Source: a virus
Taxonomy: Duplodnaviria; Caudoviricetes
IMG/VR virus record: IMGVR_UViG_3300034063_000291
Coordinates: 1-24,878 of that record
DNA length: 24,878 nt
Direction: 5' to 3' (one strand)
This document shows positions 1,167 through 24,878 of the stretch, in pieces (position 1 is the first letter of the stretch; each line of letters starts with the position of its first letter). Position numbers and translations under genes: made by a program. The notes below the pieces were generated by a model, which did no database searches, had not been told where the DNA came from, and saw only the letters and a list, made by a program, of their open reading frames with translations.

Positions 1167-1829
1167 ATGTATGAAAAAGAAGAGTTGTTCCCAGGACTTT
1201 GGGTATATAGAAATGTAATCACTCCAGAATTAGATGTAATTAATAGACTTGAGAACGCAATATCCAATTCTAAGGGCATGCATACTTGGAAAGAGGCAAC
1301 AGTAGGATATAGAGAAAAAATGCCTGACTATAGAGATTGTGTAGATTTTAAATGGAAAAAGTTTGAAGAAAGCAATCCCCTAGATAAATATAATAAAGAT
1401 GTAGATGCAATTTGGCAAGATGTGCATGACGTACAACTTGTTGCACTAAACGATTATTCTTCTTTCTACAATATTGAATTAAAATATTGGGAAGCTATGA
1501 ATTTTATTAAATACGGAGAAGGCCAACATTTCTCCTATCATTCAGATCATGGATGGTCATATATATCAACAGTATCAATGGTTGCATATATCAATGATGA
1601 TTATGAAGAGGGTGGTCTAAGATTTGATAAGCTTGATTTAACTATAAAGCCAAAAGCTGGAGACCTATACATATTCCCATCAACATATCTGTTTTCACAT
1701 GCTGCCCTCCCAGTAAAATCTGGATTAAAATATTCAATTGTTACAATGACAGACTATAACGATGCAACTCATACAGAATCTTTTTACAGACAATTCATGT
1801 CTGATAAATCAATGAAAGATGGGTACTGA
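1167..1829 (+). CDS. 2OG-Fe(II) oxygenase, prolyl 4-hydroxylase-like (#1)
   Basis: HSD (HxD), YINDDYEEGGL, PKAGDLYIFPS, distal H in SHAALPV, 2OG-binding K in GLKYS. Confidence 0.9.
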   Translation: MYEKEELFPGLWVYRNVITPELDVINRLENAISNSKGMHTWKEATVGYREKMPDYRDCVDFKWKKFEESNPLDKYNKDVDAIWQDVHDVQLVALNDYSSFYNIELKYWEAMNFIKYGEGQHFSYHSDHGWSYISTVSMVAYINDDYEEGGLRFDKLDLTIKPKAGDLYIFPSTYLFSHAALPVKSGLKYSIVTMTDYNDATHTESFYRQFMSDKSMKDGY

Positions 1830-2563
1830 TGAACTTTGATGTTTATAAAGTTTATCCAAACCAATCAGCAAATATTCAACCTTTAGGTGTAAAAAGAGAG
1901 TGGATGGATGAAACTTTTGACAAGCATGCATACCACTGCTTCCCAGTAAGTCTATCTAATACATTAGGTTGGGGAGTTTCTTTTCCAGTAGATATATCAT
2001 TTATATGGGACGGGATATCAGACTCCACAGATACACACGTTAAAGTTTTAAAAGGAAACGAATATGTATCAACCTCAAGAGCCAACGCAACAATTAGTTT
2101 CAATACAAATATAGTCATAAGAACTGAAGAAGATGTGACCATGTTGGCAATGCCAACACCAAATTGGCCCATAGAAGGTGTTTGGCCTTTTACTACATTA
2201 ATAAGCACTTCATTTTTTAAAGGGGCATTTCCAATTGCTTGGAGAATAACTAAAGCAAATGAAATCATTACTATTCCAGCAAATACACCAGTTGCAGCAA
2301 TAATGCCAATCTCTTTGGCAAGCTTAAATAATTCAGTGGCGGTAATAAAAGGGTATAAGGATTTACCAGTAGACTTTTTCCCAAAAGAAGATTATGGCAA
2401 AATTGTTAGTGATATTAATAAGTCTGGAAAATGGACTGACTTTTATAGAAATGCTGTAGACCATAAAAATAATAAAATAGGATCCCATGAAGTTAAATCG
2501 TTAAGACTAAAAAATGACGACACCGCTTTAAATGGGCCAGAAGGTTGTGGAATACCAGAATGA
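1829..2563 (+). CDS. DUF6065-like protein
   Basis: KREWMD...HAYHCFPVSLSNTLGW N-terminal signature and IPANTPVAAIMPI C-terminal motif. TGATG coupling with the upstream gene. Confidence 0.7.
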   Translation: MNFDVYKVYPNQSANIQPLGVKREWMDETFDKHAYHCFPVSLSNTLGWGVSFPVDISFIWDGISDSTDTHVKVLKGNEYVSTSRANATISFNTNIVIRTEEDVTMLAMPTPNWPIEGVWPFTTLISTSFFKGAFPIAWRITKANEIITIPANTPVAAIMPISLASLNNSVAVIKGYKDLPVDFFPKEDYGKIVSDINKSGKWTDFYRNAVDHKNNKIGSHEVKSLRLKNDDTALNGPEGCGIPE

Positions 2564-3279
2564 ACAAAATAACATTTCACTCAAATAAGCATTACAATGA
2601 TGTTGAAACAGCACCGTGTCCTACAGCAAAAGTTATACCAAAATGGTGGCATGATGCAGATATGTACGTAAAAGATTTTTATGGGAATCCAGTTTCTAAC
2701 GCAACTAAAGATGGTGGCAAAATGCTTAATTTTAAAGCATGCCCAGCAATGCTAGATACATTTACAACAGGGTACACTTTAGTTACACCATGCGATATAG
2801 AGTTTTATCAAAAAAATAACAGGATAAAGGCTAGAGTTCCATTAAAGTTTGACGACTTTGTAGGAGAAAGACCAGAGTCTGCTGGATTTCAAGTTCCTGC
2901 TGGATATGAAAAAAATCATTTTCACTGGTATGCAAATTGGGCGCCAGAGCTTCCAGATGGCTACAGCTCTCTCTATATCCAACCCATTAATCACTTTGAT
3001 TTACCATGGCTTACCGTTGGTGGTATAATAGACAGTGACAAGGTTACAACATCTGGATTGATACCATTTTTTATACAAAATGGATTTACTGGAGTTGTGC
3101 CTGCTGGAACTCCTTACTTACAGATAATACCATTCAAGAGGGAAGACTGGGAATCAGATTTTATTTTTCATAAACCTGTAACTATTATGAGAAAAGCAGC
3201 AGAGACATCAGAAACTTTTAGAACACCAGAAGGTGGAGTCTATAAGAAAAAATTTTGGACTAGAAGGAGATATAAGTAA
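2560..3279 (+). CDS. conserved phage protein of the K-x-C-P type, distantly similar to the preceding gene (possible dUTPase-like beta fold)
   Basis: IPKWW...FKACPAMLDTFTTGY...GIIDSD...VPAGTPYLQIIPFKREDW. Start moved to ATG 2560, which overlaps the upstream stop as ATGA, rather than TTG 2545. Confidence 0.75.
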   Translation: MNKITFHSNKHYNDVETAPCPTAKVIPKWWHDADMYVKDFYGNPVSNATKDGGKMLNFKACPAMLDTFTTGYTLVTPCDIEFYQKNNRIKARVPLKFDDFVGERPESAGFQVPAGYEKNHFHWYANWAPELPDGYSSLYIQPINHFDLPWLTVGGIIDSDKVTTSGLIPFFIQNGFTGVVPAGTPYLQIIPFKREDWESDFIFHKPVTIMRKAAETSETFRTPEGGVYKKKFWTRRRYK

Positions 3280-3280
3280 A

Positions 3281-3970
3281 ATGGAAAATAGATTAAATAC
3301 TAATAACACTCACGACTACAGATCATTGGGCTCTATAACTCCTTCTGGATTTTATGGTGCAGGCCCAGAAAATATTGTAGAGCTAAAGAATTTTTTAACG
3401 GATGAAGAAAGAGTAAGGCTGACAAACTTTGCTAGAAATAACACAACATGGGATATTACTGATTCTCATGTCAATGAAAATGGCACAGTTATATATGATG
3501 CTAATGCTTGGCACGATAGAGTTTGCACACGCAGATCTATGGAGATTTCTGCAGAACCATCTATAGTCGGTGTTGTGGACAATTTGATAGCAAGACTACA
3601 GGTTGAAGTAGAAAAGTTTTTTAATGTTAAGGTTCAGGCAACTGGCCCAGCTATTGTGAGATGGCCTGTTGGAGCAAGACAAGACCCTCATGCAGATAAA
3701 GAGCTCCACGAGGGGCCAGATGCTGGTACGCCAAATGATTTCCCTCATTATGATATAGCATCATTATTTTATTTTAACGATGACTATGAGGGCGGCGAAT
3801 TATTTTTCCCAGTTCAAGGAATAGAGTTTAAGCCAGTTGGTGGATCAGCTTATTTTTTCCCAGGTGATAAAAATTATATCCATGGGGTCAGGCCCGTTAT
3901 TGCTGGCGGAAGATACACGTCCCCATTCTTTTGGCAGATACTTGAGCATACTGGAGACCGAAAGCCATGA
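3281..3970 (+). CDS. 2OG-Fe(II) oxygenase, P4H-like (#2)
   Basis: HAD, YFNDDYEGGEL, IHGVRPV, GGRYT. Start moved to ATG 3281, with AAGGAG at 3264-3269 and immediately after the upstream stop. Confidence 0.9.
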   Translation: MENRLNTNNTHDYRSLGSITPSGFYGAGPENIVELKNFLTDEERVRLTNFARNNTTWDITDSHVNENGTVIYDANAWHDRVCTRRSMEISAEPSIVGVVDNLIARLQVEVEKFFNVKVQATGPAIVRWPVGARQDPHADKELHEGPDAGTPNDFPHYDIASLFYFNDDYEGGELFFPVQGIEFKPVGGSAYFFPGDKNYIHGVRPVIAGGRYTSPFFWQILEHTGDRKP

Positions 3971-4821
3971 ATCTACAATACAAAGAAATATACCCAAAGA
4001 TATGGGTTTTTAAAAATCCATGGAAAGACATTGATTTACTAACACAAACAATTATTGACTCTGAGCAAAACCCAGAAGGGTCTGCTTTAAACTGGCATGG
4101 ATGGTACACATTTGGCAAGGAAGCCGATCAATTTGATTATTCAGTTTCTTCGTCTGAAAGAACCCAGATGGAAAAAGGTTTCTGGGATGAAATAATTGAA
4201 GTGTTTAACAAAACAACAAATCAGTATGCGGAAACATTTGGTGTTCCAATTGATTCAGAGGCTCAGGTTTTTAATGAAGAAGAAGATTCAATGACACAGC
4301 TATGGAAAAGAATGGGTCCTTCTATATGTAAATATGAAGTAGATGGCGGCATAGAAGACTCGGACTTTGCTATGCATGTTCACACTGACTATCAAAAAGA
4401 CTATCATGATTTTAGAGGATATAAATTTACATTTACATGCACAATGTACTTAAACGGAGATTATGAAGGCGGAGGACTTACATTTTTAGTAGACAATAAA
4501 ACTCTTTACTATAAGCCAGAAAAGGGTGACATATTGTTGTTCCCAGCAGGTGACCCAGACTTTCTTTCCGATGCTGGTCAATTTTATATGCACGGTGTTG
4601 AAAAAGTAAAGGGGTCACCTAAGTATTTTATAAGAAATCACTGGGTTAGGTTTTATCCTGGATCAGAAGAGTGGCTAAAAAATGAAAAGCTTTATGGTAA
4701 AGAAATATGGAAAGAAATGGAAATTGCCAGGACTAAAGAAGAAAGAAGATCTGGAGTATATCAAACAATAGATTATGAAGAAATGAAAAAGCTAGAAAGG
4801 ATTAGTTTAAATGACATTTAA
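3967..4821 (+). CDS. 2OG-Fe(II) oxygenase, P4H-like (#3)
   Basis: HTD, YLNGDYEGGGL, PEKGDILLFP, MHGVEKV, PKYFIR. ATGA overlap. Confidence 0.9.
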   Translation: MNLQYKEIYPKIWVFKNPWKDIDLLTQTIIDSEQNPEGSALNWHGWYTFGKEADQFDYSVSSSERTQMEKGFWDEIIEVFNKTTNQYAETFGVPIDSEAQVFNEEEDSMTQLWKRMGPSICKYEVDGGIEDSDFAMHVHTDYQKDYHDFRGYKFTFTCTMYLNGDYEGGGLTFLVDNKTLYYKPEKGDILLFPAGDPDFLSDAGQFYMHGVEKVKGSPKYFIRNHWVRFYPGSEEWLKNEKLYGKEIWKEMEIARTKEERRSGVYQTIDYEEMKKLERISLNDI

Positions 4822-5575
4822 TTTAGAAAATCAAAATCGTGTAAAAGAAGACATTGTGTTTTTTGAAAATTTTCTTAGTCCAGAAGATTGTGAAAGAGTT
4901 ATTAAATATTGGGAGCATTCCGTAGAAAAAGGAACTCTTCCATGGGCACCTATATCATTCTACGACTCATTTGCATCTAATCTGCCAGATGATGAAGATA
5001 AAGAAAAGTTTGGTTTAGCACCTGATTTTTTTACTACTCTTCAGGATAAAATTCAGGAAGCTACAGAAATATGCAGAGGAGACAAGCTAAGGCTTGTTAG
5101 CTATCATGCACAGAAATGGGTGGAAGGTGCATATGCAGGATACCATTCAGATAATACACCAATAGATTCTCCAGAGTACAATTCGTTTGAAAGAAGTAAG
5201 TGGGCAGCATTTCTTTATCTAAATGACGATTTTGAAGGCGGAGTTCTAAACTTTAGAGATCATGATATTTCTTTGCAACCTAAAACTGGAATGCTAGCGG
5301 CATTTGCTGGCGGTCACCATAACATTCACGAAGTTCAGATGATTACCAAGGGTACTAGATTAACAATAGGATCATTTTGGGACAATGAAGAGGTTACTTA
5401 CAGCGAAGAAAAGCAGGCTTTATGGGAAACCGATATTGCAGAGCAAAGAAAAAGACAGGCAGAAGACGCCGAGCTTTGGGCAGCACTTAAAGAAAAAGGC
5501 GAAAGATTGAGACCAGGCCCAGATCAAACTGCTAAAAAAGATGTGGCTTTAAAAATTGAGGGGGAATATAAATGA
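4811..5575 (+). CDS. 2OG-Fe(II) oxygenase, P4H-like (#4) with a charged helical C-terminal extension
   Basis: HSD, YLNDDFEGGVL, IHEVQMI, GTRLTI. Confidence 0.9.
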   Translation: MTFNLENQNRVKEDIVFFENFLSPEDCERVIKYWEHSVEKGTLPWAPISFYDSFASNLPDDEDKEKFGLAPDFFTTLQDKIQEATEICRGDKLRLVSYHAQKWVEGAYAGYHSDNTPIDSPEYNSFERSKWAAFLYLNDDFEGGVLNFRDHDISLQPKTGMLAAFAGGHHNIHEVQMITKGTRLTIGSFWDNEEVTYSEEKQALWETDIAEQRKRQAEDAELWAALKEKGERLRPGPDQTAKKDVALKIEGEYK

Positions 5576-6381
5576 TAAAAACAACTGTGTTAGAAAATGG
5601 AATGATTAGGGAAGAACTTCACCCTCAAGTGTATTATTATAAAAATGCAATACCTAACGTAAAAGAGTGGCTAGAACTTGTAAACGATTCTGAAAATAAT
5701 CCAGATATGTACCCCGTATTAACTCCATGGAATCAGTGGGACGTAGATGAGAACAGGTCTATGGGGCATCCATATGTTTATGGTTATAAAAAACTATGTC
5801 TCTTAAATAGCGTCTACAATATAGACAAAGACGTTTCGGAAGAAACAAAGGAAGCGTTTATTAAAATAAGAGACCCACTGTTTAATGCTATACGAGCTGT
5901 GTGCGAAGATTATAAAAAAGAGCAAAATATACAAGAAGAATTAATACTATTAGAACAATTTGGAGTTCACAGATATCGTTCTGGAAAGTTTATGGGAGTT
6001 CACCATGATTCTCAAGAAGGAGATACACGACTACTTTATTCATTAGTTGTTTGGCCAAATGATGATTACGAAGGCGGCGAGCTTTCTTTTTCTATTAAAA
6101 ATGGTGTACTGACTGGTACAGAAAGTGCTCTTTTTGCAGACATTGATGATCCTAGAAATGAGGGCCAGTATGATTTTTTCATTAAGCCTGAAGCTGGAAG
6201 CATTGTAATATTCCCTTCACCATCACCATTTAGTCATACTGCACATGAGGTAAAATCTGGATGGAAATACATGTTGCCAATGTTTTGGATAGACCCATCT
6301 GGAGAAGATGTTCTTTTTAAGCAAGACCCAGACTTTAAGCTAGAATTTGTGTATCCAGATAAAGAGGATCTATTTAAATGA
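5572..6381 (+). CDS. 2OG-Fe(II) oxygenase, P4H-like (#5)
   Basis: HHD, WPNDDYEGGEL, PEAGSIVIFPS, SHTAHEV, GWKY. ATGA overlap. Confidence 0.9.
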   Translation: MIKTTVLENGMIREELHPQVYYYKNAIPNVKEWLELVNDSENNPDMYPVLTPWNQWDVDENRSMGHPYVYGYKKLCLLNSVYNIDKDVSEETKEAFIKIRDPLFNAIRAVCEDYKKEQNIQEELILLEQFGVHRYRSGKFMGVHHDSQEGDTRLLYSLVVWPNDDYEGGELSFSIKNGVLTGTESALFADIDDPRNEGQYDFFIKPEAGSIVIFPSPSPFSHTAHEVKSGWKYMLPMFWIDPSGEDVLFKQDPDFKLEFVYPDKEDLFK

Positions 6382-6388
6382 TTGACAA

Positions 6389-6397
6389 TGGTATAAT
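6389..6397 (+). promoter_or_regulatory. extended -10 promoter (TGnTATAAT) inside the oxygenase array
   Basis: TGGTATAAT at 6389-6397, then AAGGAG at 6412-6417 and ATG at 6423. Confidence 0.55.
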
Positions 6398-6422
6398 TAG
6401 AGATAAAATAGAAGGAGCACAA

Positions 6423-7139
6423 ATGATATCTGAAAAATTGCATGAAAAGGTTTACTACTACAAGAATGTTGTTTCTGACCCAAAGCACCTAGTTAGTTTG
6501 ATTGAAAGAACAGACTCTGAAAACTATTCAAAGTTTGTTACACCTTGGGAAGAGTGGGGTGCCTGCAGTGGAGAAATGTATATCTACGGACAGCACAAGA
6601 GAATTAAATACCTAAAGCTAGATGAACTTTTAGAAAAATGTCCAAAAGATATTTTAGAAGATGCCAAGTATATTTTTACTGAAATTTTTGACGGCATGAA
6701 AAAGGTTTGTTTGGATTATGCAGAAAAGGTGGATGAAAAGTCTAAGCTAATTTTAATGACAGATACTGCTATTAAGCGTTACGAGACTGGTACTTTTATG
6801 GGCTCTCATTTTGACCAGCAAGAAGGGGACAAAAGATTAAAGTATTCTTTAGTTATGTACCTTAATGATGACTACGAGGGCGGAGAGCTTTCATTTAGCA
6901 TTAGAGACGGAGTTCTTACTTCAACCGACTATGCAGCCTCAGAAGATATTGAAGATGATAGAAACAAAGAAAGAATTACTTTTTCAATAAAGCCAGAGGC
7001 GGGAAGCGTAATAATCTTCCCATCAGAACCACCATATAGTCATACAGCACATTTAGTAAAAAGCGGATTCAAATACATGGTTCCGTCATTTTGGTTGAAT
7101 AAAGGCTCATTTGTTGATGGAGTCTTTGTTCCAGAATAA
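6423..7139 (+). CDS. 2OG-Fe(II) oxygenase, P4H-like (#6), close paralogue of #5
   Basis: HFD, YLNDDYEGGEL, PEAGSVIIFPS, SHTAHLV, GFKY. Start ATG 6423 is preferred over 6378 because of the RBS and because MISEKLHEKVYYYKN aligns with MIREELHPQVYYYKN of #5. Confidence 0.88.
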   Translation: MISEKLHEKVYYYKNVVSDPKHLVSLIERTDSENYSKFVTPWEEWGACSGEMYIYGQHKRIKYLKLDELLEKCPKDILEDAKYIFTEIFDGMKKVCLDYAEKVDEKSKLILMTDTAIKRYETGTFMGSHFDQQEGDKRLKYSLVMYLNDDYEGGELSFSIRDGVLTSTDYAASEDIEDDRNKERITFSIKPEAGSVIIFPSEPPYSHTAHLVKSGFKYMVPSFWLNKGSFVDGVFVPE

Positions 7140-7150
7140 AGGGTTTTAAA

Positions 7151-7705
7151 ATGGCAATGTATGTTTTTCAAGAGTTATCCCCAAAAGTTTTTTACTTCAC
7201 CTATTGTCTTCAAGAGATTGGCAACTACATCCAGTTTATTGAAGAAACGGAAGATGATTCAAAAACAAATAGATCTCTTATAGGAAAGTGGTCCCATAAA
7301 GAATCTCATTCCGAAAAGAATATTTCTTCAGATCTATCTGGACAAAATGATGTAGTAGACACCAGAAGCCTTTTTGTAATCAATAACCTAAAGGCAACAT
7401 TCCATCATTGTTTTACTCAGTACAAGCTATACAATAATATAGAAGAGCCTGTAAACCTAAACACAGATTACTCTATTCGTAAGTACTACGAAAACTTTGA
7501 AGATAGTGATTTGCCTCATGGTAAATATACAGCAAAAATGTATATAAATTGTTCTTATGATGGTGGAGAAGTTGAGATTCCCAATTCAAATAAAAAGATA
7601 AAGCCAGAAGCAGGCAGCATGTTGATATATCCTTCAGATTACAATATAAAGTCTTTGCCAGGGGTCAATAACTCTAGATATGTCGCAACAGGATATTGGA
7701 TTTAA
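7151..7705 (+). CDS. degenerate 2OG-Fe(II) oxygenase-fold protein (#7), metal ligands apparently lost
   Basis: Keeps ELSPKVFYF, YINCSYDGGEV, IKPEAGSMLIYPS and SRY. Has no HxD after IRKY and no distal His. Confidence 0.75.
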   Translation: MAMYVFQELSPKVFYFTYCLQEIGNYIQFIEETEDDSKTNRSLIGKWSHKESHSEKNISSDLSGQNDVVDTRSLFVINNLKATFHHCFTQYKLYNNIEEPVNLNTDYSIRKYYENFEDSDLPHGKYTAKMYINCSYDGGEVEIPNSNKKIKPEAGSMLIYPSDYNIKSLPGVNNSRYVATGYWI

Positions 7706-9901: not shown

Positions 9902-11478
9902 TCGATAGCGAAGACGATATGTCTATCAATAATATAGAAGTTTCTAACGTGGCGGACTGGATGAGATTTAATAATCCAACCACTCAAAAATCAGACGACC
10001 TATTTGATATAGAAGGCGAAGATATTTTAAAGCTTTCGGGCCTAGGAGCTTCATTTAGAAGAAAAGTTTCTAGAGATCTTCAGAAAGCTTTTGTCGGAAA
10101 AGATGGTGCAGTTAGCCAGCAGTTGCAACATCAGCAAGCAGTTAGTGGGTATGCCACTTTTGATCTAATTCAGCCAGAATACAACCTAGACTATCTATCA
10201 ACAATTTATGAGATTTCTCCATACAACTATGCAGCTATAAATGCAAAGGTTGCAAACATTGTTGGATTAGGATTTGATTTTATCGAATCAAAAAAAACAA
10301 CAGATGCGCTAGATGAAATTAGTGATGAAAAGCAATTAGAAAGAGCACGTAAAAAGTTAAATAGAATTAAGCAAGACTTGCACAGATGGCTTGAAGATTG
10401 TAATGATGATGAGACTTTTAAAGAAACACTTATTAAGTTCTACACCGACATAGAGGCTACTGGTAATGGCTACCTGGAGGTCGGTAGAACGACAACTGGG
10501 AAGATAGGGTACATCGGTCATATCCCTTCGAAAACAATGCGTGTAAGACGCCTTAGAGACGGTTTTATACAGCTTCTTTATGGCAAGGCGGTATTCTTTA
10601 GAAACTTCGGGGATACAGAAACAATAAACCCTATAGCGGGTCAAGAAGATAGACCTAATGAAATTATTCATTTAAAGAAGTACACCCCAAAGAATAATTA
10701 TTATGGAATTCCAGATATTATTGCTGCACAAAATGCAATGGCTGGAAATGAATTTGCTGGTAAATATAATCTAGACTACTTTGAAAACAAGGCAGTCCCA
10801 CGATATATTATTACAGTTAAGGGAGCAAAGCTTTCTACAGAATCTGAAAGAAAACTACTTGAGTTTTTCCAAGTTGGGCTAAAGGGCAAAAACCATAGAT
10901 CCTTGTACATTCCCCTGCCACCAGATTCTCCAGACTCAAAGACTGAATTTAAAATGGAGCCAATTGAGGCTGGTACGCAAGAGTCCTCATTTAACGTTTA
11001 TCGTCAATCTAATAGAGACGAAATTTTAATGGCCCATAGAGTTCCAATTAATAAAATTGGCACTCCAGCTGGAATCAATTTGGCTGCAGCTAGAGATGCC
11101 GATAAAACATTTAAAGAGCAGGTTTGCCGCCCAGCTCAGGAAAATCTAGAAAAGAAATTAAATAAAATAATTCAAGAAATGACTGATGCCATGGAGCTTA
11201 AGTTTAATGAGCTTTCCTTGACCGATGCAGATACTCAGTCTAAGATAGATGAAAGATATCTTAGATTCCAGGTAATTACTCCAAATGAAATTAGAGTAAG
11301 AATGGGAATGGTTCCACGAGAAGGTGGAGATGTTCCAGTAGACCTTGCAGCCCAGGCAGCTGAGATTAAGGCTCAGGCTACTCAAAGTAGAGCCCGTGAC
11401 CAAGAGAGATCAGCAAATTCTCCAGATAAATCTGGGGAGGGCAGAAATGCAAAGGGAGATGGAAGACAAGTCAACTAG
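9898..11478 (+). CDS. phage portal protein (PBSX/HK97-like family)
   Basis: TGNGYLEV, EIIHLK...YYGIPD, YFENKAVP, EILMAHRVP, ITPNEIR-x2-MG motifs, and position before the protease and capsid genes. Confidence 0.95.
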   Translation: MIDSEDDMSINNIEVSNVADWMRFNNPTTQKSDDLFDIEGEDILKLSGLGASFRRKVSRDLQKAFVGKDGAVSQQLQHQQAVSGYATFDLIQPEYNLDYLSTIYEISPYNYAAINAKVANIVGLGFDFIESKKTTDALDEISDEKQLERARKKLNRIKQDLHRWLEDCNDDETFKETLIKFYTDIEATGNGYLEVGRTTTGKIGYIGHIPSKTMRVRRLRDGFIQLLYGKAVFFRNFGDTETINPIAGQEDRPNEIIHLKKYTPKNNYYGIPDIIAAQNAMAGNEFAGKYNLDYFENKAVPRYIITVKGAKLSTESERKLLEFFQVGLKGKNHRSLYIPLPPDSPDSKTEFKMEPIEAGTQESSFNVYRQSNRDEILMAHRVPINKIGTPAGINLAAARDADKTFKEQVCRPAQENLEKKLNKIIQEMTDAMELKFNELSLTDADTQSKIDERYLRFQVITPNEIRVRMGMVPREGGDVPVDLAAQAAEIKAQATQSRARDQERSANSPDKSGEGRNAKGDGRQVN

Positions 11479-18095: not shown

Positions 18096-18428
18096 TTGGC
18101 AAGTACAGTATATGATGTAGAAGAGATTGAACTACAAAGCGGAGCTAAAGTAAAGCTCAAGCCATTATCAATCAAGCAACTACGAAAGTTTATGGAAGTA
18201 ATTAAGAAGGTACAAGATGCAGAAGACGAGACAGCAACACTCGGTATTCTTGTTGAGGCATGCGGGGTAGCACTAGAAACTCAGCTACCAGATCTTGTTG
18301 CAGATCTAGACAAGCTTGAAGATGCACTAGACGTTCCAACAATTAATAGAATCCTTGAAGTTTGCGGAGGAATTAAGATGGACGACCCAAACCTAATAGC
18401 GGCAGCGGTACTGGCTGGTCAGAACTAG
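18096..18428 (+). CDS. tail assembly chaperone (lambda gpG analogue)
   Basis: Lies between the tail tube and tape measure genes, has a strong RBS, and carries a slippery site near its 3' end. Confidence 0.85.
   Translation: MASTVYDVEEIELQSGAKVKLKPLSIKQLRKFMEVIKKVQDAEDETATLGILVEACGVALETQLPDLVADLDKLEDALDVPTINRILEVCGGIKMDDPNLIAAAVLAGQN
18386..18392 (+). other. programmed -1 ribosomal frameshift site C CCA AAC
   Basis: X XXY YYZ heptamer in the correct phase. The -1 frame is open from 18377 to the stop at 18764-18766. Confidence 0.8.
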
Positions 18429-18766
18429 ATTTAGCCGCTTTAGAGGGACAAGTTTTTCTTTTAGGACATTGGAAGAATTACGAGGAGTTAGAAGAAAATT
18501 TATCAATGCCAGAATTGATTCAGACCTTAACAGCAATGAATCAAAAAGAACATAACCAGAGAAAGTTTGCAGCATCGCTAAAAGGAATCCAATTAGATGA
18601 TGAGGCAGAAGAAGAAAAAGAAAAAGGTTCTACCTTTGAAGATATCCAAAGAAGAGCTCTTGGAATTAAAACATCAGCAGATGATGTTGTTAGTTTACAG
18701 GGACCCTTCGCAGCACAAGCTGGATTTGGAATTGGCGCAGGGTTAGGATACTCTAGGAGTAATTAG
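18392..18766 (+). CDS. C-terminal part of the frameshifted tail chaperone (gpGT analogue; full product 18096-18766)
   Basis: The -1 frame reads PNSGSGTGWSELDLAALEGQVFLLGHWKNYEELEENLSMPELIQ..., continuous with the listed 18506 ORF. Confidence 0.8.
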   Translation, partial: PNSGSGTGWSELDLAALEGQVFLLGHWKNYEELEENLSMPELIQTLTAMNQKEHNQRKFAASLKGIQLDDEAEEEKEKGSTFEDIQRRALGIKTSADDVVSLQGPFAAQAGFGIGAGLGYSRSN

Positions 18767-21700
18767 TGGCTGACGAACAAATTGTAACATCCATAGTCGC
18801 CAAAGCCGACTTGTCTAGCCTTGTGTCTGAAGTACACAGGGCTAGTGCTAGTCTTCAGCAACTCCAAAGAGAGCTTCTATCATCAAATAGAGCTATTGCA
18901 TCTTCAACAAAATTAGCAAACAACCTATTTAGAGATACACTAACTGGAAGCGGACAGTTCTCTAGCCACTTTGTAAATCTTAATTCAGATGTAGATAAAT
19001 TTGGTAAGAATTTAGATGCAGGTAGATTAAAGCTTAAAAACTATTTCCAAACTTTTAGAGAGCATGCTACTACTCAAAAGGGAATGATTAGAGAACTTGC
19101 CAAAGAGCAAGTTATGCTTCAAAACTCAGTACTGCAACCTTTAGGCAGAAATGCTCAAGGTTTAATGCAGTACAACGTCATGATCCCAAGAGGACTAGAT
19201 GCTGTAAAAAATAGCGCACAGCTAGCTCGCATGGAGCTTCAGATAATGAATCGTGCATTATCTGAAGGAGCAGGATCTTTAATTAACTGGGGTAAGAATA
19301 CTCAGTGGGCAGGTCGTCAGCTTACAGTTGGTCTCACAGTACCATTAACAATGTTTGGTGCTGCAGCAGGAAAAGCTTTCAGAGAAGCAGATCAAGAGCT
19401 CGTAAGACTTACAAAAGTTTATGGCGGGCTAGCAGCAACATCTGCAACAGACTTAAAAGCAATTAGAGAAGAAGTTATTCAAACAGCAAAAGCTTTATCT
19501 CAAACAATGGGTGCATCTTTTAAAGATACTATTGCTTTAGGTGCAGATATTGCAGCAACTGGAAAGATGGGCAACGAACTACTTGGCTCAATAGAAGAAA
19601 CAACAAGACTTTCTATCCTTGGTGAAGTAGACAGACAAGATGCAATGAAGGCTACACTTTCAATTCAGACAGCATTTAAGCAGAACACAGAACAGCTTAC
19701 AGAATCAATTAACTTTCTTAACGCAGTTGAAAACCAGACATCTACAACCCTTAACGATTTAGTAGAAGCTATTCCAAAAGCTGGTCCAGTTATACAGCAA
19801 CTAGGCGGAAGCATTGAAGACCTAGCTCTCTATATGACAGCAATGAGAGAGGGCGGTATAAATGCATCTGAAGGAGCAAACGCATTAAAGTCAGGACTTG
19901 CCTCCTTAATTAACCCAACAAAACAAACAGTCGGAGTTATGTCTGACTTTGGTATAGATGTAATGGGAATGGTTGCCAAAAATACTGGAAATACAACTGG
20001 TATGCTAATGGATCTACAATCTGCTCTTAATAAGCTAGACCCATTGAGCAAAGCAAGAGCTCTAGAGCAAATGTTTGGAAAGTTCCAGTTTGCAAGAATG
20101 AGCGCATTGCTCAACAACCTCGGTAAAGAAGGAAGCCAGACGCTCCAGGTTATGGATTTAATGAAGGCAAGCACTTCAGATTTGGCGGGAATTGCAGAAC
20201 GAGAATTAGGAATGATTACAGAATCTGCATCTGGTAAATATAGAAAGGCTATGGAAAGCCTAAAGGCAGAGCTAGCAAGCGTAGGAGAAGAATTCCTTGG
20301 AATAGGAACTAAGATTCTAAATGCAGCATCAAAGATTTTAAATTTCTTTACTGAGTTGCCAACACCAATTAAAAAAGCTCTTACATTTATGGCAGGCTTC
20401 ACAGCATTAGTAGGTCCACTTATTATGTTAACTGGTGTGCTTGCAAACTTCTTCGGATATATAACAAAGGGAATAGTCCAGCTTAGATCTTTCTTTATGA
20501 GAGCAAATGGATGGAAAATGCTTACGCCAGAAATTATTGCTGCTCAAAAAGCAGCAGAGATGGTTGAGAATGCATTCTATTCAGATGCAGCAGCGGCTCA
20601 AGTTCTACACAACGCACTGCAGAAGCTTGTTTTAGATTATCAAAATCTGCAAGCAGCTTCAATGAAAAATGCAGTTCCAGTTAATGGTGGCGTAAGCACA
20701 GTTGCTGGAAATACAGTGGTTGCAGCTGGAAGAAGAGTGGTTGACCCTAACGATCCATACGTTGGAGATCCTAATACTAGAGCAATGTCTCATATTAGAC
20801 CAAGAGATGTAAACAACCCAGCAACCATATTTGGCGGGGTACCAGGAGCTATTCCAGTTAATAGAGGTATATCAAGAACTCCACAAATGTACATGCATGA
20901 TAGACTTCCAAATATTGAAGGACTAACAAGCGTTAAGGGAATATCCACAGGAATTGTTCCAGGCGAAGCAGCAAAGTTCCATGCATTAATGGCAACACTA
21001 GGAATGCAAACAGAGCAAGAGGTTGCTACATTAAAGAAAACTATTGCTATGGGCGGAACCGTGAGCAGAGAACTCTTAGATACATTTGATGACATACTTC
21101 CTATAACTCAAAGATTTGCAGATAGTGCAGCAACACAATCAGCCTTAATTGTTCAACAAATGAGAAATGCGGAAATTACTGTAGACCAAGCAAAGGCAAG
21201 AATACTTGCACTTAATGCACAGATCGAAGCAGAAATGGGCTCAGCCGTAAGCGCATATGCAGCAGGCAGAGGTCGTGTATTAGATTTAACAAAAGCTCCA
21301 ATGATGAATCAACCAGTTGTTGACGCAAATGGACAATTTACTCTAAGAGATTTGTATAAAAAGCAAGCAAATGCTTCTGTAATGGAGGAGTTTGGAAGAC
21401 TTCGTGGAGTAAGAACATTTGGAGCACCATATAGCATTCAGACAACAAGAATGCCTAAGTTTAATATCGGTGGAGGCATAGAGTCTTTTGGTCCAGGAAA
21501 GACTATGGTATCTGGCCCATCTTCAATTAACTATGATGACAGACTTGGAAGTGTTCCAATCGGCGGATATGTACTAAACCAATCTGCTTCAATGGACCCA
21601 GCAAACGCCCCCCTTGTCGCAATGGCAGATGCTACATATGAAAATGGCGGAGAAATAACAGCAGCGCTTACCCCACGGGAAGTAGTATTTGGACCTAAGA

Positions 21701-24700
21701 TTCAAAGAATGCCTGAGCTATATGCAGCAGTAGATGCAGCAAATAGTGGGTATAATTTTGGCGGGCAGATCATGAGTGGCATTACTGGATATGGAAGACA
21801 AACAGATCAAACTCCTAATGGCATAAATAAAGCTGCATTTAAAAAGCAGATGAAAGAATATTTAAGATTTATCAACAACCCAAGATATGAAGATGATGTA
21901 CGACTAAGAATGATTATGCTTGATGCATCTGAGTTAGTTCAATATACTGGATTGTCTCCAGAAAAAGCAATTAAAGTAGCGTCAAGCAATTTTGATTTAG
22001 CTAAAGCATCTTCAGGTGGGTCTTTAGAAAAATTCATTGAGCAAAGAATTAAGCAGGTAAAGGGCCTTGAAAGAAGATACCCAGCATTAAAGCATCCAAA
22101 TTCTGAAGCAACAAGAACAGCTTCAAGTAAAGGATTAAATAATAATTTAAACAAAGTAAGAGATGCTATGCTAAAAAGCCCAGCATTTAAAGACGTATGG
22201 GATTTAGTTGAAAGAGTAACACCAACTAAAATTAATCCTAACGGAGTTCCCCTTTTAGATCAAAATGTTAGAGGTCATCTATTAAGACATGGTGAGGTTG
22301 GTTATGCAACTAGAGGGCATATGGGAGTTGCAGCAGTACTACCTCATTCAATAAATAGCGTAATGGCTACACTTCAGAAGATAGGAATATCTCCAGACAT
22401 TTTAAACCTAGACTCCTTGTCTGCAAGAAAGAGTCTTGAAATGGCATTAAAAAATGTAGGGTTATCAAAAATTGCAACTCCAGATGATATTTTTACAGCA
22501 TTGCAAGATGATGGATTGTTTAAGAGCAAGGCTCAAATTGAATCTGGAAATATAGTTAGATCAAATAAAAAACAGAGAAGTTCATTAAGCATGTTGCTAG
22601 AAGCTGCAGCAGAAAGAAAAAGATGGGTATTTAGAGGAAGGCCTCCAATCCCCGTTCTTCTTAATAAGGGCGGAATGATTCCAGGTGGACATATATCTAG
22701 AAATAGATCAAGCTATGGGAACGTATCTCCATTATTAAAACTAATTGCACCAGATAAACAATTAAATATTTTAAGAAAAGCTCGTGAAATGTCAATTGAT
22801 ACAGCAACTGGATCATTTAAGGATATGGCCCCAGTTAAATATGGTCATATGGTTGCTCCAAGTTCTGGTATGAGCTATCCAATTCCTGGTGTTTCTGGAC
22901 TGTATAAAGATACAGATGGAAACCTAAAATTCTTTAAGGGTGTTCCAAACGAAATATCTGCTAAAGCCGAAGTATATGGAACTAGAATGGCCAGAGAAGT
23001 TTTTGGTTTAGAGGCACCAGAGCAAACTATTAGAACGATTGCAAACCCTTTAGATCCAAGTGGAAAGTCCAAACTGCTTGGGCTCGAGTCACCTTTTGAT
23101 AAAAAATTTATCGGCGGAGGAACCAAGTTTACAGAAGATCAAATGATTAGGCAAACAATTGCTTCTTTAGTAATGAACAATAAAGATCTTTCTCCTAGCA
23201 ATGTATTTGGAAATGTTTTAGCTGATGTGGGAGCCGCTGGTGTTTTTCCAAAAGCATCAGGGAATACAGAGTTTGCAAAAACATTACCTTCAATGGCTGA
23301 GCAAGGGTCTATAAATCTCCTTGAAGTTAAAGGCGGTGCAAGAAAAGATTTTGCAGTAAATACTGCACCAATTGCTGCTAAAATGTCACCCAAGCAATAT
23401 GAAAGAAAAATGAAAAAAGCAATGGCTTCAATGTACCCAGACCTTGTTAAGTTTGTTGCAGGTATACCAAAAGCAGATAGAGGCCCATATGTAAAGCTTC
23501 TAAAAAGATTTGAAGATGGAATGGAAAACATCGATTTTGCTAAGCTTCATGGGGTACATATCGCTGCAAAAAGGAATAGCGGTGGACCTATTGGTGGGCC
23601 AGTTCAAAGAGGCAGATATGCTTATGGAAGGCCAGGAAACCCAGCTGCTAGAGCTGAGTGGGAAGCTAAACAACGTGCACAAAGAGAAAGAGATGCAGCC
23701 GCTAGAAAAGCTCAAATAGGATCGCATGGAATTACTGGTCAGCAAAAGTTAACAACAGGACTTGGAAGAGAAGCTGTAAGAACTGGAACAACAAGCTTTT
23801 ATAATCCTGGGCAAGTAATGGTTAACAATATGGTGGACCCATTTAAAAATTCAGCAGCAATGAAGGCTCAATATTTATCAGCGGCATTTAAAGCTATGGG
23901 TAATACAATTAAAGTAGACTCAATGCAACTAGCAAAAGCTATAGATATCAATGCAAGAGTCATTGGGCTTTCTATGAAAAACACAGCTACATCTATGAAT
24001 AATAGCGTAAGAGCAGCTGCTACATCAACATTAAATTTTGCTAAGAGGCAGAGAAATTTAATTCTAAGAGAGCAAGCTGCAGTTACAGCAAGACATTATC
24101 CTACAGGAGGATTTGATCCATATCAAAAATCTTACTTTGGTCCTGGCCTTGTCAGCGACTGGAAGAGCACTGGGCAAGACGGAATACAAAAAAGAAAAGT
24201 AGGAAGTTTAGGATTTAGAAAAACAGAGTTTATGGTTGGCGACCAACTGATGACCAGATCTCAGGCAAAAGCTGCTGGCGTTTCCGTTCCTGGAAGAGGA
24301 CCAATGGGCATGGGAGCTCAAATGGGAATTGGAATGGCTGGATCTATGGCTGGAATGGCCCTGATGAGCAAAGAAAAAGTCAATGTTGGAAAATATGAAA
24401 TGTCAGGTATGTCTGCTGGTATGGGTGTTATGGCTGCAAGCAGTATACTTCCATTCCTGCCGTTTGCTAAAATGGGTGGAGGATTAAAGTCTGCAGCAAC
24501 AGGAGCTGCTGGACTAGCAAAAGGATTCTCAGCTGCAATGAAAGCTGGAACAGTTTTGGTAAAAATAGTACCAGCTATATTAAGACTGGCAAAAGGCTTT
24601 GGTCCAATAGGATTAGTGGTAAGCGCACTTAGCATAGGATTAAAGGTATACAAGGATTACAAAGATGCTCAGCAAGACGCCTCTATGGGTCTTTCCATGA

Positions 24701-24878
24701 CTGCTAAGGCAGCAGAGCAAGCTGGAGTAAAGTATTTTAATCTTAAAGAAACAATGCAAGGTTATATAGACAAGGCAAAGCTTGCTGCTGCAGCTGCAAA
24801 AGGATCGGCAGGAAACACGATTGGAATGCCTGGATTACCTAGATCTATAGAAGAGTTAAAGAAGGCCAAAGAAGAAGG
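18766..24878 (+). CDS. tape measure protein (TP901-type core), 3'-truncated, at least 2037 codons, with inserted cargo domains
   Basis: GTG at 18766 overlaps the upstream TAG, with AGGAG at 18755-18759. Frame 1 is open to the window end. The core at about 19380-20300 reads INFLNAVENQTSTTLNDLVEAIPKAG...AMREGGINASEGANALKS. Hydrophobic segments occur at about 20380-20465 and 24300-24645. Confidence 0.93.
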   Translation, partial: MADEQIVTSIVAKADLSSLVSEVHRASASLQQLQRELLSSNRAIASSTKLANNLFRDTLTGSGQFSSHFVNLNSDVDKFGKNLDAGRLKLKNYFQTFREHATTQKGMIRELAKEQVMLQNSVLQPLGRNAQGLMQYNVMIPRGLDAVKNSAQLARMELQIMNRALSEGAGSLINWGKNTQWAGRQLTVGLTVPLTMFGAAAGKAFREADQELVRLTKVYGGLAATSATDLKAIREEVIQTAKALSQTMGASFKDTIALGADIAATGKMGNELLGSIEETTRLSILGEVDRQDAMKATLSIQTAFKQNTEQLTESINFLNAVENQTSTTLNDLVEAIPKAGPVIQQLGGSIEDLALYMTAMREGGINASEGANALKSGLASLINPTKQTVGVMSDFGIDVMGMVAKNTGNTTGMLMDLQSALNKLDPLSKARALEQMFGKFQFARMSALLNNLGKEGSQTLQVMDLMKASTSDLAGIAERELGMITESASGKYRKAMESLKAELASVGEEFLGIGTKILNAASKILNFFTELPTPIKKALTFMAGFTALVGPLIMLTGVLANFFGYITKGIVQLRSFFMRANGWKMLTPEIIAAQKAAEMVENAFYSDAAAAQVLHNALQKLVLDYQNLQAASMKNAVPVNGGVSTVAGNTVVAAGRRVVDPNDPYVGDPNTRAMSHIRPRDVNNPATIFGGVPGAIPVNRGISRTPQMYMHDRLPNIEGLTSVKGISTGIVPGEAAKFHALMATLGMQTEQEVATLKKTIAMGGTVSRELLDTFDDILPITQRFADSAATQSALIVQQMRNAEITVDQAKARILALNAQIEAEMGSAVSAYAAGRGRVLDLTKAPMMNQPVVDANGQFTLRDLYKKQANASVMEEFGRLRGVRTFGAPYSIQTTRMPKFNIGGGIESFGPGKTMVSGPSSINYDDRLGSVPIGGYVLNQSASMDPANAPLVAMADATYENGGEITAALTPREVVFGPKIQRMPELYAAVDAANSGYNFGGQIMSGITGYGRQTDQTPNGINKAAFKKQMKEYLRFINNPRYEDDVRLRMIMLDASELVQYTGLSPEKAIKVASSNFDLAKASSGGSLEKFIEQRIKQVKGLERRYPALKHPNSEATRTASSKGLNNNLNKVRDAMLKSPAFKDVWDLVERVTPTKINPNGVPLLDQNVRGHLLRHGEVGYATRGHMGVAAVLPHSINSVMATLQKIGISPDILNLDSLSARKSLEMALKNVGLSKIATPDDIFTALQDDGLFKSKAQIESGNIVRSNKKQRSSLSMLLEAAAERKRWVFRGRPPIPVLLNKGGMIPGGHISRNRSSYGNVSPLLKLIAPDKQLNILRKAREMSIDTATGSFKDMAPVKYGHMVAPSSGMSYPIPGVSGLYKDTDGNLKFFKGVPNEISAKAEVYGTRMAREVFGLEAPEQTIRTIANPLDPSGKSKLLGLESPFDKKFIGGGTKFTEDQMIRQTIASLVMNNKDLSPSNVFGNVLADVGAAGVFPKASGNTEFAKTLPSMAEQGSINLLEVKGGARKDFAVNTAPIAAKMSPKQYERKMKKAMASMYPDLVKFVAGIPKADRGPYVKLLKRFEDGMENIDFAKLHGVHIAAKRNSGGPIGGPVQRGRYAYGRPGNPAARAEWEAKQRAQRERDAAARKAQIGSHGITGQQKLTTGLGREAVRTGTTSFYNPGQVMVNNMVDPFKNSAAMKAQYLSAAFKAMGNTIKVDSMQLAKAIDINARVIGLSMKNTATSMNNSVRAAATSTLNFAKRQRNLILREQAAVTARHYPTGGFDPYQKSYFGPGLVSDWKSTGQDGIQKRKVGSLGFRKTEFMVGDQLMTRSQAKAAGVSVPGRGPMGMGAQMGIGMAGSMAGMALMSKEKVNVGKYEMSGMSAGMGVMAASSILPFLPFAKMGGGLKSAATGAAGLAKGFSAAMKAGTVLVKIVPAILRLAKGFGPIGLVVSALSIGLKVYKDYKDAQQDASMGLSMTAKAAEQAGVKYFNLKETMQGYIDKAKLAAAAAKGSAGNTIGMPGLPRSIEELKKAKEE
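21751..23628 (+). repeat. three copies of a peptide linker GG-x-[IV]-x6-YG, with N-x-GG at its start, within the tape measure protein
   Basis: YNFGGQIMSGITGYG (21751-21795), LNKGGMIPGGHISRNRSSYG (22660-22719), RNSGGPIGGPVQRGRYAYG (23572-23628). The GG-to-YG spacing is 8 residues in all three. Confidence 0.75.
22840..23560 (+). other. HipA-like/atypical protein-kinase-fold domain inside the tape measure protein
   Basis: GVSGLYKDTDGNLKFFK (Lys 22936), SAKAEVYGTRMAREVFGLEAP (Glu 22969), NKDLSPSN (DxxxxN, 23185-23202), LADVG (DFG equivalent, 23224). Confidence 0.7.

Follow-up and report, generated by a model that had tools for sequence, protein, structure and literature searches.

Two independently exchanged, enzyme-like cassettes between conserved linkers in the tape measure protein of a probable actinophage

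Tape measure proteins (TMPs) of siphophages are known to carry cell-wall enzymes and, once, an RNA polymerase, and cleavage has been demonstrated only for those of T5 and lambda (PMC12617516; papers given by PMC number are cited for the parts of their text that were available). T5 pb2 is cut after R1127 into pb2* and pb2C, which splits off a muralytic domain (PMC10038345), and lambda gpH is matured to gpH* and gpHC, the C-terminal fragment starting near residue 690, with both the cut site and its catalyst not known (PMC12617516). In mycobacteriophage TM4, the Tmp contains a motif of cell-wall hydrolases and probably undergoes processing (PMC1796659); the available part of PMC10721106 says nothing on cleavage. 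Polyvalent proteins, in turn, are thought to be delivered early and freed by proteolysis (PMC5512222). Here we analyse the TMP encoded on IMG/VR virus record IMGVR_UViG_3300034063_000291, a linear virus record of 24,878 bases that was studied over its full length (the window) and in which portal, head protease, capsid, tail and chaperone genes are followed by the TMP gene. In our reading, to which we assign a probability of about 0.5, this TMP holds two cassettes that are swapped independently of each other, one a predicted atypical kinase and the other a likely His-Me-type nuclease; both are likely packaged in the tail, likely excised at conserved glycine linkers and likely set free in an actinobacterial host as infection begins.

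The TMP gene lies on the plus strand, as do all features described within it, and occupies 18766–24876, with 2037 amino acids (aa) in frame before it runs off the end of the window. The protein matches PF10145 (E-value 7e-28) and 15 PHROG TMP families, and both this core domain and the gene position place it among siphophage TMPs. Relatives were gathered by two scans (79 and 80 loci), from which 90 distinct TMPs of at least 1300 aa were kept; full-length close relatives measure 2795–4711 aa (26 sequences), and 74 complete relatives span 1855–4711 aa. A first hydrophobic stretch (20374–20469, residues 537–568) and a second one (24490–24666, residues about 1909–1967) enclose cassette 1 (21796–22659, 288 aa, residues 1011–1298) and cassette 2 (22720–23571, 284 aa, residues 1319–1602), fenced by linker 1 (21751–21795), linker 2 (22660–22719) and linker 3 (23572–23628, with R-N-x-G-G). 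The initial annotation, which had described a cassette array with two globular inserts of these sizes between the hydrophobic stretches, was right on both size and placement, and its linker positions 21751, 22660 and 23572 mark the starts of a wider linker whose GG unit is doubled in linkers 2 and 3.

Comparison with close relatives shows the cassette boundaries, the exchange of cassettes as whole units and purifying selection on both. In one relative (L081), identity to the window stands at 98% over residues 150–898, drops right behind the Y-G of linker 1 to 13–33% in the 30-residue windows that cover cassette 1, and recovers at linker 2, cassette 2 being 86% identical. A second relative (L114) shows the reverse, with 90% identity in cassette 1 and 56% in cassette 2. 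Across 30 close TMPs, there is no correlation between the two cassettes in pairwise identity (Spearman 0.00), against 0.87 and 0.65 for the halves of a single cassette. The trees agree with this: of 15 supported splits in the tree of cassette 1, 13 are contradicted by that of cassette 2, whereas between halves of the same cassette this is so for 2 of 12 and 1 of 13. When switch points were mapped in triplets of these 30 TMPs, 2973 of 3165 fell into nine 20-residue bins around the three linkers, 17 inside cassette 1 (1040–1279) and 5 inside cassette 2 (1360–1579), counts in which a single event recurs many times and to which the scaffold contributes few informative sites. Six allele classes of cassette 1 and four of cassette 2 occur in 14 combinations. 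The median ratio of nonsynonymous to synonymous substitution rates (dN/dS) is 0.28 for cassette 1, 0.19 for cassette 2 and 0.08 for the scaffold (72, 145 and 416 pairs passing the divergence filter). The initial annotation had expected variable and non-homologous segments between the linkers: the swapping is borne out, and what near relatives exchange is mostly divergent alleles of one family per slot (in slot 1 down to about 20–30% identity), unrelated cargo being confined to distant TMPs.

The breakpoints lie in conserved DNA, where assemblers might jump between strains and create a false mosaic, and 16 of 29 close relatives, including L081, which rests on one contig, have no near-identical second contig. 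Such an artefact is nevertheless scarcely credible: the other 13 recur in separate assemblies and, together with the window, account for 10 of the 14 allele combinations, among them every possible combination of two classes of cassette 1 with two of cassette 2, four in all (L114, the window, L045 and L021). The window itself is not a chimera, since two public runs, one of which may be its own source, each hold an unbroken contig covering the three linkers; the two contigs show 6 and 12 differences to the window. We propose that swapping would proceed by ordinary homologous recombination in conserved linker DNA, driven by conflict with host defences, and that crossovers would stay at the linkers because those inside a domain are selected against.

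The linker was defined in the initial annotation by a GG-x-[IV]-x6-YG spacing recurring three times, and exactly three copies are found in the 2037-aa frame, starting at 21760, 22684 and 23593. None of 20,000 shuffles had two or more copies, the pattern having been picked after the fact. In an independent check among the 90 related TMPs, 51 likewise have exactly three copies, 8 have two, four or five, 4 have one and 27 have none. A shorter core, [FYM]-[NASHE]-x-G-G-x-[IVLM], is found 225 times beyond residue 880 (56 TMPs; 5.2 times in shuffles) and a single time ahead of that residue. A linker profile scores four sites in the window, at 21460, 21751, 22660 and 23572. The related motifs noted earlier therefore fare differently: the one at 21460 is a fourth full copy (19.8 bits), whereas neither 21637 (YENGG) nor 24097 (YPTGG) scores above 7; the former is an internal repeat of the module described next, and the latter was rejected as a linker for want of profile support.

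The linker is not special to this protein: judged by its sequence, it forms the margin of a joint module that many TMPs share. In the window this module (21460–21795, residues 899–1010) opens with F-N-x-G-G at 21460, contains the internal repeat near 21637 and ends in linker 1; residues 899–995 correspond to the joint, which is about 55 residues long, in a partly duplicated form (hhalign against the common joint: 90%, E 1.5e-6). One copy from a relative (L003) matches 1744 of 50,697 phage records at E <= 1, nearly all in TMPs among the matches listed, and joint profiles from these phages match lambda gpH at 754–782, TM4 at 702–750, and the Streptomyces phages Bmoc and Wakanda. A tblastn search of annotated phages did not recover the joint of the window itself.

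At the DNA level, the linker copies are identical at just 6–12 of 18 bases, and a DNA-repeat search did not find them as repeats, except for a 12-base match between two copies. In the 30 close TMPs, synonymous positions vary while N, G-G, I/V and Y-G are nearly fixed, so that linker conservation across homologues, as anticipated, is confirmed and the constraint acts on the peptide. Linkers as DNA repeats or site-specific recombination sites are thus ruled out; their suggested role as recombination points holds in the sense that the switches concentrate there, not in the sense of dedicated sites. In AlphaFold2 models, all three linkers are predicted to be disordered, with a predicted local distance difference test (pLDDT) of about 32–45, compared with 80–98 in the cassette cores. 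In relatives they are often present as 8–9-residue tandem repeats; runs of two to four copies at this spacing occur at residues ~1200–1570 of six TMPs (L043, L044, L048, L050, L053 and L055), and these runs suggest that the linker expands by slippage.

Both inserts fold confidently in models (pLDDT 81–82), in keeping with the earlier description of them as globular, and both folds, like the kinase active site, are predictions from such models. Cassette 2 (33 sequences) reaches a pLDDT of 82 and a predicted template modelling score (pTM) of 0.79, with both flanking linkers near 32. Its best structural match is CotH (Z 11.8, root mean square deviation 3.9, 220 aligned residues), followed by MavQ and CtkA (both Z 9.8), PI4K II alpha (9.7), Fam20 (9.2) and HipA (9.1). 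Each of the 12 chains with Z >= 8 has a kinase fold, as do the 50 best rows; Foldseek likewise ranks this group, though with a best E of 0.003, and the ESM Atlas returns PI3/PI4-kinase and HipA-like clusters at 0.92. The model thus has the two-lobed kinase fold, and Lys1391 (22936), Asp1474 (23185), Asn1479 (23200) and Asp1487 (23224) are unchanged in 33 of 33 rows, at identities as low as 37%; going by known kinase motifs, we take these to be the ATP-binding Lys, the catalytic D-x4-N and the metal-binding Asp of atypical kinases. Cassette 2 is therefore predicted to be an atypical kinase of the PI3K/PI4K, HipA, CotH and Fam20 group. Protein and lipid kinases lie within 2–3 Z units of each other among its matches and are not told apart by the fold; Actinobacteria make phosphatidylinositol, so that a lipid substrate is possible as well. 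CotH, CtkA, PI4K type II, Fam20C and HipA resemble cassette 2 in fold and catalytic layout (Z 9.1–11.8) but are only 9–13% identical to it. Neither Pfam and PHROGs nor sequence profiles against PDB gave a credible match, and the kinase cassette was not found in GTDB genomes (word-seeded scan) or in annotated phages; neither cassette was found in the 50,697 phage records. Of 21 protein matches that might have been stand-alone cassettes, the 7 that were read all resemble pieces of TMPs.

Cassette 1, which the initial annotation had called nuclease-like, is supported as such by a motif and predicted secondary structure only, whereas the kinase-like label of cassette 2 is supported by a fold match. 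The model of cassette 1 (38 sequences; pLDDT 81, pTM 0.78) is a mostly helical domain in which a strand ends at His1171 (22276) and is followed by a second strand and then a helix with Asn1197 (22354); in model numbering, the strands are 172–176 and 194–198 and the helix 199–210. His1171 is the sole invariant column (38 of 38 rows, down to 20% identity), and Asn1197 is kept in at least 90%. In His-Me finger nucleases, the catalytic His stands at the end of strand 1 and an Asn in the helix after strand 2, and the modelled His and Asn follow this beta-beta-alpha layout. Many alleles read D/E-R-G/A-H or S/T-E-H, which resembles His-Me finger nucleases. Together, sequence and model make a His-Me-finger-type nuclease likely. 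Profiles join six sequence clusters into one superfamily of 59 slot-1 segments, and cassette 1 may represent an uncatalogued nuclease family; several slot-1 families of distant TMPs could not be linked to it by profiles. Foldseek found nothing better than E 0.31 in PDB and E 0.19 among viral structures, VIA gave best Z values of 3.9 and 3.0, and no credible or usable match came from Pfam, PHROGs, profiles of the cassette or its core against PDB, or the ESM Atlas. The absence of a fold match does not establish a new fold; the His-Asn motif takes up a small part of the 326-residue model.

It is conceivable that the inserts serve as structural filler, determining tail length or forming the DNA channel, and that their enzyme features are relics. 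TMP length does vary widely among the 74 complete relatives, the kinase slot is missing in many relatives, and dN/dS in the cassettes (0.19–0.28) exceeds that of the scaffold. Relics would hardly keep the four kinase residues and the cassette 1 His without exception at such divergence, and we regard filler as highly unlikely.

True replacement or loss of a cassette appears, from sequence, in more distant TMPs only. Four of them (L048, L055, L056 and L058) carry an ADP-ribosyltransferase-like cassette in the kinase slot, in L058 directly behind a cassette 1 allele; a sequence profile against PDB gave nothing credible, so that this label rests on an R..S-x-S..E-x-E pattern read by eye. In other distant TMPs the kinase slot holds a small domain of no known kind or is empty (L031, L033–L035). 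The kinase follows a joint at about residue 750–790 in L068 and L143–L148, whose N-terminal part is only 41–47% identical, and in L068 an HAD phosphatase cassette (10778–11335) lies directly after the kinase.

Many complete relatives have a second linker-bounded array near the C-terminus; L081 has none. Pfam searches of 52 representative segments found CHAP, with or without LysM, in four segments and a single segment each with lysozyme, NlpC/P60 and OmpA, every one of them lying downstream of the second hydrophobic stretch; they also found an HAD domain upstream of that stretch and weak GNAT matches in three segments downstream. The OmpA-family cell-wall-binding domain forms a TMP cassette in L073 (15608–16396). 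Cell-wall enzymes of relatives are thus found only in the second array. By eye, the C-terminal array also holds a second kinase-like cassette type (L082:14417–15892, L084:15016–16353, L085:14945–16609), in L082 with D-G-H-D-G-N and D-F-G motifs and a Pfam ABC1 match of only E 0.16. Motif spacing like that of ADP-ribosyltransferases, also read by eye and with no Pfam match, is seen at L021:19649–20917, L082:13490–14416, L011:13668–15143 and L105:14561–15526. HExxH cassettes, again read by eye, are present at L016:14121–15167, L017:14606–15862, L020:19490–21358, L037:18857–20569, L054:14170–15981 and L084:17623–19155; they are candidate self-processing peptidases, although relatives such as L081 are without them. 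Strict sorting of cargo by membrane side only half holds. Downstream of the TMP in L081, the one relative read for an adjacent immunity gene, lie open reading frames (ORFs) of 195 and 1087 aa, the size of tail genes.

How the cassettes would reach and act in a host we infer as follows. They would be stored unfolded in the tail tube and, located between the two hydrophobic stretches, end on the cytoplasmic side. Cutting at the linkers, during tail maturation or on ejection, would fall after the first motif residue (F899, Y996, L1299 and R1603), a position transferred by analogy from T5, with a protease reading the A/N-x-G-G side; the freed domains would then fold in the host. There the kinase would modify host proteins and the His-Asn domain would cut nucleic acid, both before phage gene expression. 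The T5 record reads R-A-E-G-G-M at the pb2 cut site, with the cut between R and A, and a profile built from eight joints of a second subtype has a match in T5 that begins at residue 1127 (9.6 bits, E 0.005; the highest score among 100 shuffles was -0.1).

The cassettes might instead be delivered uncut, with the linkers serving as flexible hinges or chaperone-binding sites that let the domains fold on exit and the enzymes remaining tethered to the membrane-inserted TMP. Predicted disorder and the frequent tandem repeats of the linkers would suit such a role, the P23-45 RNA polymerase has been proposed to act while fused to its TMP (PMC10770324), and polyvalent proteins packaged or transferred uncut are noted in PMC5512222. 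A simple hinge, by contrast, needs no near-fixed N/A, G-G, I/V and Y-G positions, and the T5 cut falls in the same string; we hold uncut delivery to be unlikely, yet the strongest of the competing explanations. Excision during tail assembly, with the cassettes acting in the producing cell (in late host control or competitor exclusion) and not in the next host, seems to us quite improbable. The lambda and T5 TMPs are cut in tail morphogenesis, some copies of the lambda fragment may be lost (PMC12617516, PMC10038345), TMP processing can remove an internal segment (PMC1796659), and folded 280-residue domains would presumably not fit the tail lumen; on the other side, the T5 fragment remains in the tail (PMC10038345), and a late effector gains little from being placed inside a TMP.

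Several points weigh against release of cut cassettes into a new host. No protease for cutting at the linkers was identified. The T5 joint match is weak (E 0.005) and concerns a joint subtype that the window lacks at its linker places, while the short linker profile does not rise above chance at the T5 site (top score 3.7; shuffled 95th percentile 6.7). In lambda, the joint is at residues 754–782, whereas the published C-terminal fragment begins near 690. Cassette 1 matches no solved fold or profile in fold, profile and Pfam searches. The triplets behind the switch-point counts are not independent events. Finally, the sorting of cargo by topology is weakened because cytoplasm-type cargo also occurs in the C-terminal array (GNAT below or at the cut-off, HExxH motifs and the second kinase-like motif set, by eye).

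A broader form of the cut-and-release reading, which we put forward tentatively and at somewhat less than even odds, is that A/N-x-G-G joints are a general cleavage code of siphophage tails that freshwater actinophages have multiplied. The TMP would then be a polyprotein magazine with cell-wall enzymes at the end that exits first and a kinase, a new His-Me nuclease family or an ADP-ribosyltransferase between the membrane anchors; all of these would leave ahead of the DNA, and an arms race with host defences would reshuffle them one cassette at a time. An exchangeable array of cytoplasm-type enzymes would turn the tails of abundant lake phages into a route by which effectors made in advance are delivered. 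The motif also yields a concrete prediction for the old open question of where and how TMPs are cut, one that can be tested now because the joint is present in cultured phages.

Two further segments of the TMP flank the array. Ahead of the joint, a conserved domain with no function assigned (20713–21459, residues 650–898) moves with the scaffold; it is non-helical and retains R-x-x-[SA]-H, with His676 at 20791, and P-Q-x-[YF]-M in most relatives. It might be a fixed third cargo or a processing element. A relationship to cassette 1 found no profile support, and an apparent match to kinase segments arose from rows that include the kinase. Behind linker 3, a variable Ala-rich segment (23629–24150), likewise with no function assigned, is also mosaic among relatives.

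Among cultured phages, the closest relatives of the TMP include those of Streptomyces phages Wakanda and Bmoc (Stanwilliamsviridae), with 37–38% identity over the N-terminal part and the same gene order around the TMP, which sits after the major tail and chaperone genes. The gene whiB is a marker of actinobacterial phages (PMC6802176), and its presence in five of five related genomes of 106–117 kb points to an actinobacterial host. Lake metagenomes are the best holders of the window sequence among the public runs listed, and no RNA run is among the holders listed. Elsewhere in the window, positions 1–308 are a 12-base tandem repeat of 25.7 copies that is open in all three forward frames, frame 1 encoding (FPPF)n with a Cys-rich tail that ends at 378; this FPPF-repeat gene starts outside the window. 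Seven 2OG-Fe(II) oxygenase genes, six of them above the Pfam cut-off, form one run with a DUF6065 gene at 1167–7702, ahead of a lectin-domain protein and the portal. The two small ORFs before the TMP (18096–18766) correspond by position to the tail assembly chaperone pair of Bmoc.

What is new here is a quantified, rate-independent mapping of crossovers to linkers, a check for assembly chimeras and a candidate active site of cassette 1; no paper on linker-bounded cassette arrays in TMPs was found in the literature searched, which left out most subscription papers. T5 pb2 is similar as a TMP in which a cut within an x-A-x-G-G string sets off an enzymatic domain, but it has one cut and one C-terminal cell-wall domain, whereas in the window four linkers fence internal, cytoplasm-type and swappable cassettes. 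Lambda gpH has one joint module in the C-terminal part of a processed TMP, with no enzyme known and no cassettes. The TMPs of Wakanda, Bmoc and TM4 all have the joint module, and in Wakanda and Bmoc there is no linker between the N-terminal part and a C-terminal joint. Thermus phage P23-45 gp96 is, like the window's protein, a giant TMP with a working cytoplasmic enzyme, its virion RNA polymerase; this is a single fixed N-terminal enzyme, for which the available text of PMC10770324 describes no linker array or exchange. In polymorphic toxin systems the toxin varies at the C-terminus (PMC3482391), whereas the cassettes here are internal, at residues 1011–1602 of ~2800–4700 aa; of the two analogies drawn in the initial annotation, the one with polyvalent proteins stands and the one with polymorphic toxins does not hold in the strict sense. 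Polyvalent proteins (Iyer et al. 2017, PMC5512222) are likewise large and link several kinds of domain, namely kinase, ADP-ribosyltransferase, GNAT, metallopeptidase and lysozyme, in one chain. A combination of unrelated enzyme domains of conflict type within one protein is also found in the window (the kinase and the His-Asn domain) and in relatives (CHAP, LysM, lysozyme, NlpC/P60, HAD and weak GNAT, with HExxH and ADP-ribosyltransferase-like motifs by eye). The word "tape" is absent from the main text of PMC5512222, whose supplements may list TMP architectures. The window's 2037 aa, which lack the C-terminus, hold no metallopeptidase, ArdC-N or LPD hub domain, HExxH cassettes being present in some relatives. 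Cassette 2 falls outside the polyvalent proteins' own kinase clade, which is without a C-terminal subdomain (PMC5512222), and keeps a helical C-lobe with five helices after the DVG motif. By analogy, the arrangement is an extension of the TMP fusions known from T5, TM4 and P23-45, one that would work in the manner of polyvalent proteins.

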